From Candidatus Pacearchaeota archaeon (lineage in GTDB: Archaea; Nanobdellota; Nanobdellia; Pacearchaeales; GW2011-AR1): a stretch of 44,665 nt of DNA. The notes beneath the pieces were generated by a model that was given only the letters and a program-made list of their open reading frames with translations, did no database searches and was not told the origin of the DNA. Below, one piece after another: positions 4,557 through 5,098 of the stretch. Numbering within the stretch: the stretch's first letter is position 1; every line of letters begins with the position of its first letter. The position numbers and the translations under genes are program-made. The stretch is from assembly GCA_016866975.1 (NCBI GenBank), contig VGKP01000006.1, forward strand, positions 1 through 44,665. Direction: 5' to 3'.

Positions 4557-5098
4557 CAGAGTTATTGGTTGTAATTCCAATTAACTTTGTAATTAATGAT
4601 AAACAATAATTTCGTTGAACGAAATTAATAAATAAGGGCCTCTTTAAATTTGGCTATTTGCTGGAACATTCCATAACTTATTAGTAGGAAGTTATTTTCG
4701 CGAGAAGATAATTAATCACTGAAAATCTAATGAGTGGAACAATCAGCAGGAAAGGCGAGAATTTAAATATAAAAGAATAATAAGATAAATATGAATTTCA
4801 AACCAAGAATATGGAAGACATTAATGTCTATTGTTGCAAGTATATTGGTTAATTATCTATTAAATAGCACTAGAAATATTTGTATTATGGTCGAAGGATT
4901 AAAATGTAAATCCGTATTCGACCACATGCTTGAAACTAGTTCAATTTTAATTAATATTGTAGTATTATTTTTAATTTATATTATTTGGAGTTTAATCCAA
5001 AAGAAACAATAAATTTCTCGAATCCTCAGAGACTATACGCCAAAAACTTTTATAAAAATAAAAGTTATGATATAGTCCAACAAAATAATGATTTTGAG
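4557..5098 (+). mobile_element. Group I intron at LSU position 1923 (IB-like, 542 nt), no homing endonuclease
   Basis: Exon ends ...GAGGCT and the intron ends ...TTTGAG (omega-G) before CTTAAGG. The guide TAAG-GGCCTC (4633-4642) pairs both exons (P10 and P1 with U.G). Core motifs: P TTGCTGGAA 4658, Q AATCAGCAGG 4741, R TCAGAGACTATA 5026, S GATATAGTCC to 5078; P3 TTTGGC/GCCAAA. Confidence 0.93.
4791..5012 (+). CDS. Intron-encoded 73-aa two-TM membrane protein of unknown function
   Basis: Lies in the P6 loop (stem CGAGAATTT/AAATTTCTCG). Two hydrophobic stretches flank a loop with two Cys. TATA TTTAAATA starts 29 nt upstream. A paralogue is at 6869-7198. Confidence 0.8.
   Translation: MNFKPRIWKTLMSIVASILVNYLLNSTRNICIMVEGLKCKSVFDHMLETSSILINIVVLFLIYIIWSLIQKKQ

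Follow-up and report, generated by a model that had tools for sequence, protein, structure and literature searches.

Group I introns in rRNA genes have a place for an ORF, and the question raised by the locus described here is why this place should be taken, in the 23S gene of a DPANN archaeon (Pacearchaeota), by a short gene that looks like that of a membrane protein and is preceded by a putative promoter of its own. The ORFs found in introns elsewhere are usually endonucleases or maturases. For group I introns such an identity is assumed almost by definition, and surveys score their ORFs in this way (PMC6125680, PMC11835236). Group I introns of Pacearchaeota at LSU/1923, 1931 and 2593 have already been reported (Nawrocki et al. 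2018, PMC6125680), so that the presence of the intron is nothing new; the novelty lies in what it contains and in how general such contents are.

The L1923 intron and its ribozyme core

The window, i.e. the whole stretch of 44,665 nucleotides that was analysed, starts with the rRNA operon of its host, in which a 16S gene (630-2074), a tRNA gene (2229-2299) and a 23S gene (2670-6513) follow each other. The host genome, 89% complete, amounts to 806 kb in 31 contigs. The 23S gene exceeds the Rfam model (2987 positions) by about 850 nt, though its own rRNA is shorter than the model, because it is interrupted by two AT-rich insertions (4557-5098 and 5729-6225) that sum to 1039 nt. The first of these, at L1923, has a GC content of about 25%, compared with about 48% in the 23S exons. 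The 5' exon terminates with ...TATGAGGCT (longer form ...UAUGAGGCU), its last base, at 4556, being U1923, and the 3' exon begins with CTTAAGGTAGCG at 5099 (longer form CUUAAGGUAGCG). The position of U1923 is our own count, made from an alignment to the E. coli helix 69-71 numbering.

Exact 4556/5099 junctions, as expected of an intronless or spliced molecule, occur in contigs of three RNA runs and, at the DNA level, in a single contig from a relative. These joined contigs, whose source could be intronless relatives, fix the boundaries of the intron, and the exon junction thereby proves exact the coordinates 4557-5098 proposed in a preliminary description of this DNA. With regard to public reads, the runs holding host DNA are lake-water metagenomes, and the matching RNA runs, which are groundwater metatranscriptomes, contain only the conserved exons of foreign organisms and leave the intron uncovered. 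Four genomes of the same genus have an assembled 23S gene (G008, G001, G004 and G010; L131-L134), and these harbour an ORF-less intron of 315-433 nt at L1931 and no intron at L1923, the host genome being devoid of the L1931 intron. Since within the genus only the host genome has the L1923 intron, the latter represents a lineage-specific acquisition.

In other respects, the second 23S insertion (5729-6225) is an intron of 497 nt located after U2593, without any ORF of at least 60 aa. It gives no Rfam group I match at E ≤ 1, shares segments with the L2593 introns of relatives and, according to the exon alignment, ends with an A and not a G, likewise in L026 and L049. Elsewhere in the genome, a strong group I intron match of 81.5 bits is present at G000:C3:31340-31612 (L001).

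Table 1. Features of the L1923 intron, of the gene that it contains and of the second gene copy (positions in the window)
Feature	Position	Strand	Remarks
Group I intron, L1923 site of 23S	4557..5098	+	542 nt
5' exon end GAGGCU, exon strand of P1	4551..4556	+	pairs with GGCCUC 4637-4642
Extended L1 loop, two AT-rich hairpins	4557..4632	+	common with sister intron L041
Internal guide sequence	4633..4642	+	UAAG (P10), then GGCCUC (P1)
P3 5' strand	4648..4654	+	pairs with 5039-5045; compensatory changes in 8/11 related introns
P4 5' strand UGCUGG	4659..4664	+	pairs with UCAGCA 4743-4748; covaries
P5 and P5 extension	4665..4742	+	less certain than the remaining helices
P6a 5' strand CGAGAAUUU	4756..4764	+	pairs with 5011-5020; duplex -11.1 kcal/mol
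TATA box TTTAAATA	4762..4769	+	first T at -29 from ATG
73-aa two-helix membrane-protein gene, MNFKP...WSLIQKK family, predicted leaderless	4791..5012	+	
P6a 3' strand	5011..5020	+	ORF stop codon overlaps
P7 (5031-5037/5071-5077), P3' (5039-5045), P8 hairpin (5047-5064)	5031..5077	+	
P9 hairpin and terminal G (5098)	5081..5098	+	
Degraded second copy of the gene	6819..7210	+	300 nt downstream of 23S

The Rfam model Intron_gpI (RF00028) matches the L1923 intron over 4972-5098 only, with 31 bits (E 5e-6), which is below the gathering score of 50. This alignment, weak but significant, comprises P7-P9 alone and stays under the threshold because the ORF splits the core; the intron is not listed in a whole-genome search with RF00028. 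Its helices were assigned by hand, and their covariation was checked on 11 related introns from relatives and metagenomes. P1, P10, P3-P9 and the terminal G could all be placed (Table 1), in keeping with the preliminary description, which had held the intron to be structurally complete. P1 contains a U.G pair formed by U1923 at the 5' splice site, and P10 unites the UAAG of the guide sequence (4633-4636) with CUUA of the 3' exon (5099-5102). The variants of P3 are UUUGGC/GCCAAA, UCAAGC/GCUUGA, CUCAAC/GUUGAG and UCUGAC/GUCAGA; P4 reads GCUGG/CAGC in some related introns and GCGGG/CCGC in others, and P6a covaries as CGAGAA/UUCUCG, CUAGAA/UUCUAG and CUAGAC/GUCUAG. Altogether, compensatory changes among the 11 introns affect P3, P4, P6 and P7, and the minimum-energy fold of the ORF-less core gives P4, P6, P7 and P8. 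By these comparative data, nothing is missing from the ribozyme core, and selection acts on its structure.

The 73-residue protein and its family

Shuffling the intron 5000 times gives, by chance, an ATG-initiated ORF of at least 73 codons in 77 cases (1.5%), and the case for a gene therefore rests on the family of the protein and not on the ORF alone. A word-based search returned two relatives whose ends, MNFKP..WK and LIYIIWSLIQKKK, are identical, and a profile search among 1.8 billion representatives returned 305 clusters at 50% identity (E ≤ 1e-3), almost all of 58-125 aa and matched from end to end. The window ORF is recognised by the first family profile with an E value of 5.7e-32, and by the profile of a 60-sequence alignment with an E value of 5.8e-24. 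Members of the family are laid out as MNFKPTLWK, a first transmembrane helix, a Cys loop, a second transmembrane helix and IYIIWSLIQKKK; in the alignment, this corresponds to a basic N-terminus, helix 1, a variable loop usually carrying two Cys and then a Pro, helix 2 and a basic tail. All the motifs that define membership are present in the window ORF, namely, MNFKPxxWK, the two helices, the two-Cys loop and the C-terminal IYIIWSLIQKK. The two hydrophobic helices and the Cys pair had been noticed in the preliminary description, and both stand: AlphaFold2 predicts a helical hairpin with helices 5-28 and 49-72 (pLDDT 77), and in the family alignment Cys31 and Cys39 fall in the two columns where Cys is conserved.

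A six-frame search detected the family in 57 of the 401 genomes of the order, mostly as stop-free open frames and frequently as tandem copies. The named records belong to Pacearchaeota, Woesearchaeota, Nanoarchaeota and unclassified archaea, with one exception labelled uncultured Methanosarcinales archaeon, and the protein search across genomes thus reveals a conserved, lineage-restricted family. In the conserved columns of its alignment, codon-position entropy amounts to 0.44, 0.33 and 0.98 for positions 1, 2 and 3, respectively, the third varying most, and synonymous codons are diverse, serine for example being written with six different codons. Among the 15 closest family pairs, dN/dS ranges from 0.15 to 0.50, with dS near saturation. 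Both the entropy pattern and the dN/dS values indicate purifying selection among the homologues, the lack of which the preliminary description would have counted against the gene. For the window copy itself, dN/dS against near relatives is not measurable because its closest homologue is only 44% identical. From its family relationships, the window ORF is a conserved protein-coding gene. The idea that the termini are conserved through the RNA structure of the P6 stem was rejected, as free-standing copies keep these residues with different codons.

The preliminary description had also seen no endonuclease motif in the ORF, and this holds true in Pfam, which returns no match at E ≤ 10 for the window ORF; LAGLIDADG, GIY-YIG, HNH, His-Cys and PD-(D/E)XK were considered. 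A decayed endonuclease was likewise rejected, since tblastn with the LAGLIDADG protein of a neighbouring intron gave no match in this intron better than an E value of 6. No annotation of the family was found in the ESM Atlas, in a PDB profile search or in the cluster names. When 60 members were compared with Pfam, PHROGs and NCBIfam, no annotation was obtained, and only scattered weak matches typical of hydrophobic sequences were returned, such as FeoB_associated in 10 of the 60 members (E ≥ 0.003) or Hol_Tox in a single one (E 0.0012), PHROGs yielding no consistent family. The window ORF alone matched the exosortase/archaeosortase family TIGR04178, with 23.8 bits for a cut-off of 23. The enzymes of this family are multi-pass proteins that measure about 280 aa and rely on Cys, Arg and His for catalysis. 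Because none of the 59 other members gave this match and the protein has 73 aa, it was dismissed as a chance match between hydrophobic sequences.

Promoter, genomic locations and contents of the P6 loop

The TATA box of the gene overlaps the P6 stem, as previously noted, the overlap being with the final 3 nt of the 5' strand of P6a. The cassette made up of promoter and ORF fills the P6 loop exactly, with the TATA box at one P6a strand and the stop codon at the other. Upstream of 607 long ORFs of the host genome, TTTAWAWA is found 74 times at exactly -29 and 18 times at -30, over a background of 0-4 per position. This peak implies that leaderless transcription is the norm in this genome, and the gene, with its TATA box at -29, therefore carries the standard signal of the genome for a leaderless transcript; the genome-wide mode of -29 confirms the spacing to which the preliminary description had drawn attention. 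Furthermore, nearly all of the 67 family copies, whether in an intron or not, possess a TATA box 19-22 nt before the ATG, as in the window, and most other P6-loop ORFs keep the same spacing. Of the two routes of expression initially envisaged, the gene's own promoter and the excised intron, the former is favoured by the standard position of the TATA box and by the conservation of this spacing in homologues inside and outside introns. The excised intron is an unlikely template for translation, since the window ORF lacks a Shine-Dalgarno-like sequence ahead of its ATG and starts in this genome are leaderless.

In about one third of the family copies, intronic as well as free-standing, a conserved TTGAAGTYAT motif precedes the TATA box by 8-10 nt (L015, L016, L019-L021, L025, L026, L029, L041, L043, L045, L049, L054, L055, L059-L062). 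This motif, absent upstream of the copy in the window, may be the binding site of a regulator that travels with the gene. The rRNA operon is likely transcribed from a promoter of its own, CGAAACCTTTATATACC (window 270-290), about 340 nt upstream of the 16S gene, and similar GCGAAAC-TATA elements occur in other genomes downstream of family copies that precede rRNA genes. The copies upstream of 16S genes were also considered as leader peptides, a reading that was rejected since a separate BRE/TATA-like rRNA promoter follows them.

The host genome contains two copies of the gene, of which the intron copy is the only intact one. The dead copy (Table 1) has kept a TATA box at -29 and P4'-P6 flanks that resemble those of an intron; ATA stands in place of its ATG, and a dispersed double-hairpin repeat of 126 nt (about 7031-7156), inserted in frame, splits it. 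This repeat has 76 BLAST matches in the genome, dozens of them near-identical. In other genomes and in metagenomes, family copies reside in L1931 introns (G039, G258, G346 and G398; metagenomic loci L043, L045/46, L049/50 and L052), in L1923 introns (L041 and L048) and in an L2593 intron (L047). Intact intron copies come from five genomes, each independent at the species level, and from nine metagenomic introns. Several non-intron copies (L015, L020, L026, L027 and L054) are located 0.2-0.5 kb from a 16S or 23S gene and in the same orientation, a frequency of rRNA-flanking copies far above the roughly estimated expectation of about 1%. The other non-intron copies are situated among housekeeping genes; one free-standing member (P0002) overlaps its neighbours in the manner of an ordinary operon gene, and no conserved neighbour or partner gene was found around the free-standing copies. 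In the family tree, whose resolution is poor (29 of the 55 inner branches are open), the intron copies are polyphyletic, the well-supported branches forcing at least three switches between intron and non-intron location.

A P4'-P6 motif, CAATCMGCAGGRAAG, retrieved 67 sites in 63 of the 401 genomes and none in a reversed control. The survey of P6 contents comprises the 65 motif sites lying in the analysed loci, a few of which are cut by contig ends. The P6 loop is short and devoid of an insert in 19 of these 65 introns, and holds a LAGLIDADG-like ORF in 12, a member of the MNFKP...WSLIQKK family in five, and other ORFs of 63-176 aa in about 20. The latter include a HIT-domain protein (L118), an HTH_3 protein (L113), a pair of 175-aa proteins without a Pfam match (L093 and L101) and a second small membrane family starting with ..EDxVPIxG.. 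(L080, L106 and L119); many of the remaining P6-loop ORFs have no match. Most of the non-endonuclease P6 ORFs, and several of the endonuclease genes, are preceded by a TATA box at -27 to -31. The preliminary description had proposed that the intron acts as a vehicle for cargo. This proposal is supported by the P6 loop shared with LAGLIDADG genes in sister introns, by the occurrence of the family at three rRNA sites and in free-standing form, by the polyphyly of the intron copies and by the variety of the other genes.

In the L1931 introns with LAGLIDADG genes (L005, L074, L100, L112 and L130), the gene begins upstream of P4', and the ribozyme core CAATCAGCAGGAAAG is thereby translated as ..NQQER.., within the N-terminus MSADNQQER. 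The ORF of L119 joins this endonuclease N-terminus to an unrelated cargo, a fusion suggesting that the replacement took place by recombination within the loop. Among L1923 introns, the closest relative is L041, which harbours a member of the MNFKP...WSLIQKK family in P6 and, in its P8 loop (L041:726-1179), a DUF4258/DUF2283 pair. The same combination is present in L047 (L2593, about 770-1200), and L045/46 retain the DUF2283 gene (L045:1502-1666). The L1923 and L2593 introns with DUF4258/DUF2283 come from contigs of one metagenome.

Proposed explanation, alternatives and known counterparts

We consider it likely that the window contains an L1923 intron in which a cassette of promoter and ORF, encoding a small membrane protein of a lineage-specific family, has taken the P6 loop, the slot of the homing endonuclease. 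Transcription by TBP/TFB would start at the A of the ATG or next to it, inside the rRNA gene, and the product would be a leaderless mRNA independent of the pre-rRNA. The protein would insert as a helical hairpin with both termini inside, its short outward loop carrying the two Cys. The intron would splice from the pre-rRNA, so that the ribosome would bear no cost, and the intron would for that reason constitute a harmless landing site, with the cassette in a loop where the ribozyme tolerates it. As its rRNA flanks are among the most conserved DNA known, the intron might also bring the cassette into further genomes through homologous recombination.

As to the role of the protein, our guess goes to an accessory peptide that acts at the membrane, whether in toxin/immunity or at the cell surface, and not to a factor of splicing or mobility. 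A function useful to the host can tentatively be put forward, the protein being then a surface Cys-loop peptide or a small subunit of a membrane complex, involved for instance in the host contact of an episymbiont, with introns and rRNA flanks as convenient sites. The conserved termini and the hypervariable, often Cys-rich outward loop are what such a peptide might display, and the restriction of the family to one lineage, the purifying selection and a promoter that looks regulated, with TTGAAGTYAT upstream of the TATA box in about one third of the copies, point in the same direction. However, the family occurs in only about 15% of the sampled genomes and has no conserved partner genes, and the host genome tolerates a dead second copy.

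The patchy spread over 57 of 401 genomes and the frequent tandem copies also fit an addiction function, which we nevertheless regard as rather unlikely. The peptide would in that case damage the membrane, as a type I toxin-like or holin-like protein, or act as an immunity partner, and would penalise the loss of the intron and maintain it without an endonuclease. Its size, two transmembrane helices and basic C-terminal tail resemble those of class II holins and small membrane toxins, and in L041, L045/L046 and L047 the introns are shared with the DUF4258/DUF2283 toxin-antitoxin genes. On the other hand, homology to toxins, holins or defence proteins was not found (Hol_Tox matched one of 60 members at E 0.001, and PHROGs matches were inconsistent), neither a partner gene nor a conserved neighbour accompanies the family, many copies stand amid housekeeping genes, and the sole intact copy of the host genome has no visible antidote.

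It appears improbable that the ORF was recently captured and is silent within the rRNA gene, or is decaying on its way to loss. A second copy is already dead in the same genome, and P6 is empty in 19 of the 65 related introns, but the window copy has an intact frame, a start codon, all the family motifs and both Cys; its TATA box stands exactly at -29 and is packed, together with the stop codon, on the P6 stem without slack, and intact copies persist in five species-level genomes and nine metagenomic introns. A splicing cofactor (maturase) or a new type of mobility protein would suit the classical P6 position and the usual identity of ORFs in other introns, but is very improbable for a protein of 73 aa made almost entirely of two hydrophobic helices, in which no nuclease or RNA-binding motif was found and whose relatives mostly live outside introns.

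Beyond the P6 cassette of the window, for which we argue, we can propose, with reservations, that the rRNA introns of Pacearchaeota and Woesearchaeota form a general gene-carrying platform instead of being mere parasites propelled by an endonuclease. Interchangeable, promoter-bearing cassettes in P6 and P8 would move among L1923, L1931, L2593 and the rRNA flanks and would cross between species by recombination in the rRNA exons, which are conserved universally, the membrane peptide and the toxin-antitoxin genes possibly serving as addiction functions that replace homing. What matters in this respect is that an archaeal lineage seems to fill the endonuclease slot of its rRNA introns with unrelated genes, every one of which has a standard promoter situated within an rRNA gene. 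If confirmed, this would represent a new way of housing, and possibly of spreading, accessory or selfish genes in very small genomes, and would offer an explanation for the persistence of endonuclease-less introns. It would also mean that RNA polymerase initiates a protein-coding transcript within an rRNA gene, and at least 305 clusters at 50% identity would stand as one large family of DPANN membrane peptides, so far uncharacterised.

With regard to known systems, the archaeal introns at LSU/1923 and LSU/1931 assigned to subtype IB4, a label of the study concerned (PMC6125680), share with the present one the lineage (Pacearchaeota/Woesearchaeota), the sites, the core and the ORF slot in P6. 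Of the 39 introns studied by Nawrocki, Jones and Eddy (2018, PMC6125680), 21 had ORFs, all of the LAGLIDADG type, and Pfam gave no further match. In contrast with those introns, the P6 loop in the window accommodates a gene for a membrane protein, preceded by its own TATA box. The protein itself is reminiscent of small two-helix membrane toxins and class II holins by its length of about 70 aa, its two transmembrane helices, its termini predicted to lie inside and its basic tail, but no sequence relationship to them was detected, and no lysis or antitoxin partner is present. L1923 is the insertion site of Ce.LSU.5, the chloroplast 23S intron that encodes I-CeuI. Both are thus group I introns with an ORF at the same 23S site, but I-CeuI is a LAGLIDADG homing endonuclease, whereas the window ORF has no nuclease features. 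A non-endonuclease gene in a group I intron of LSU rRNA has a counterpart in the fungal mitochondrial intron mL2449, which houses rps3, an essential ribosomal protein gene fixed there. Unlike rps3, the cargo described here is an accessory membrane protein with its own promoter, exchangeable among introns and chromosomal sites. By analogy, integron cassettes may be compared, as they too involve a fixed platform with a slot for interchangeable, unrelated small genes; integrase and attC are absent here, each cargo brings its own promoter, and the platform would be a ribozyme residing in an rRNA gene.
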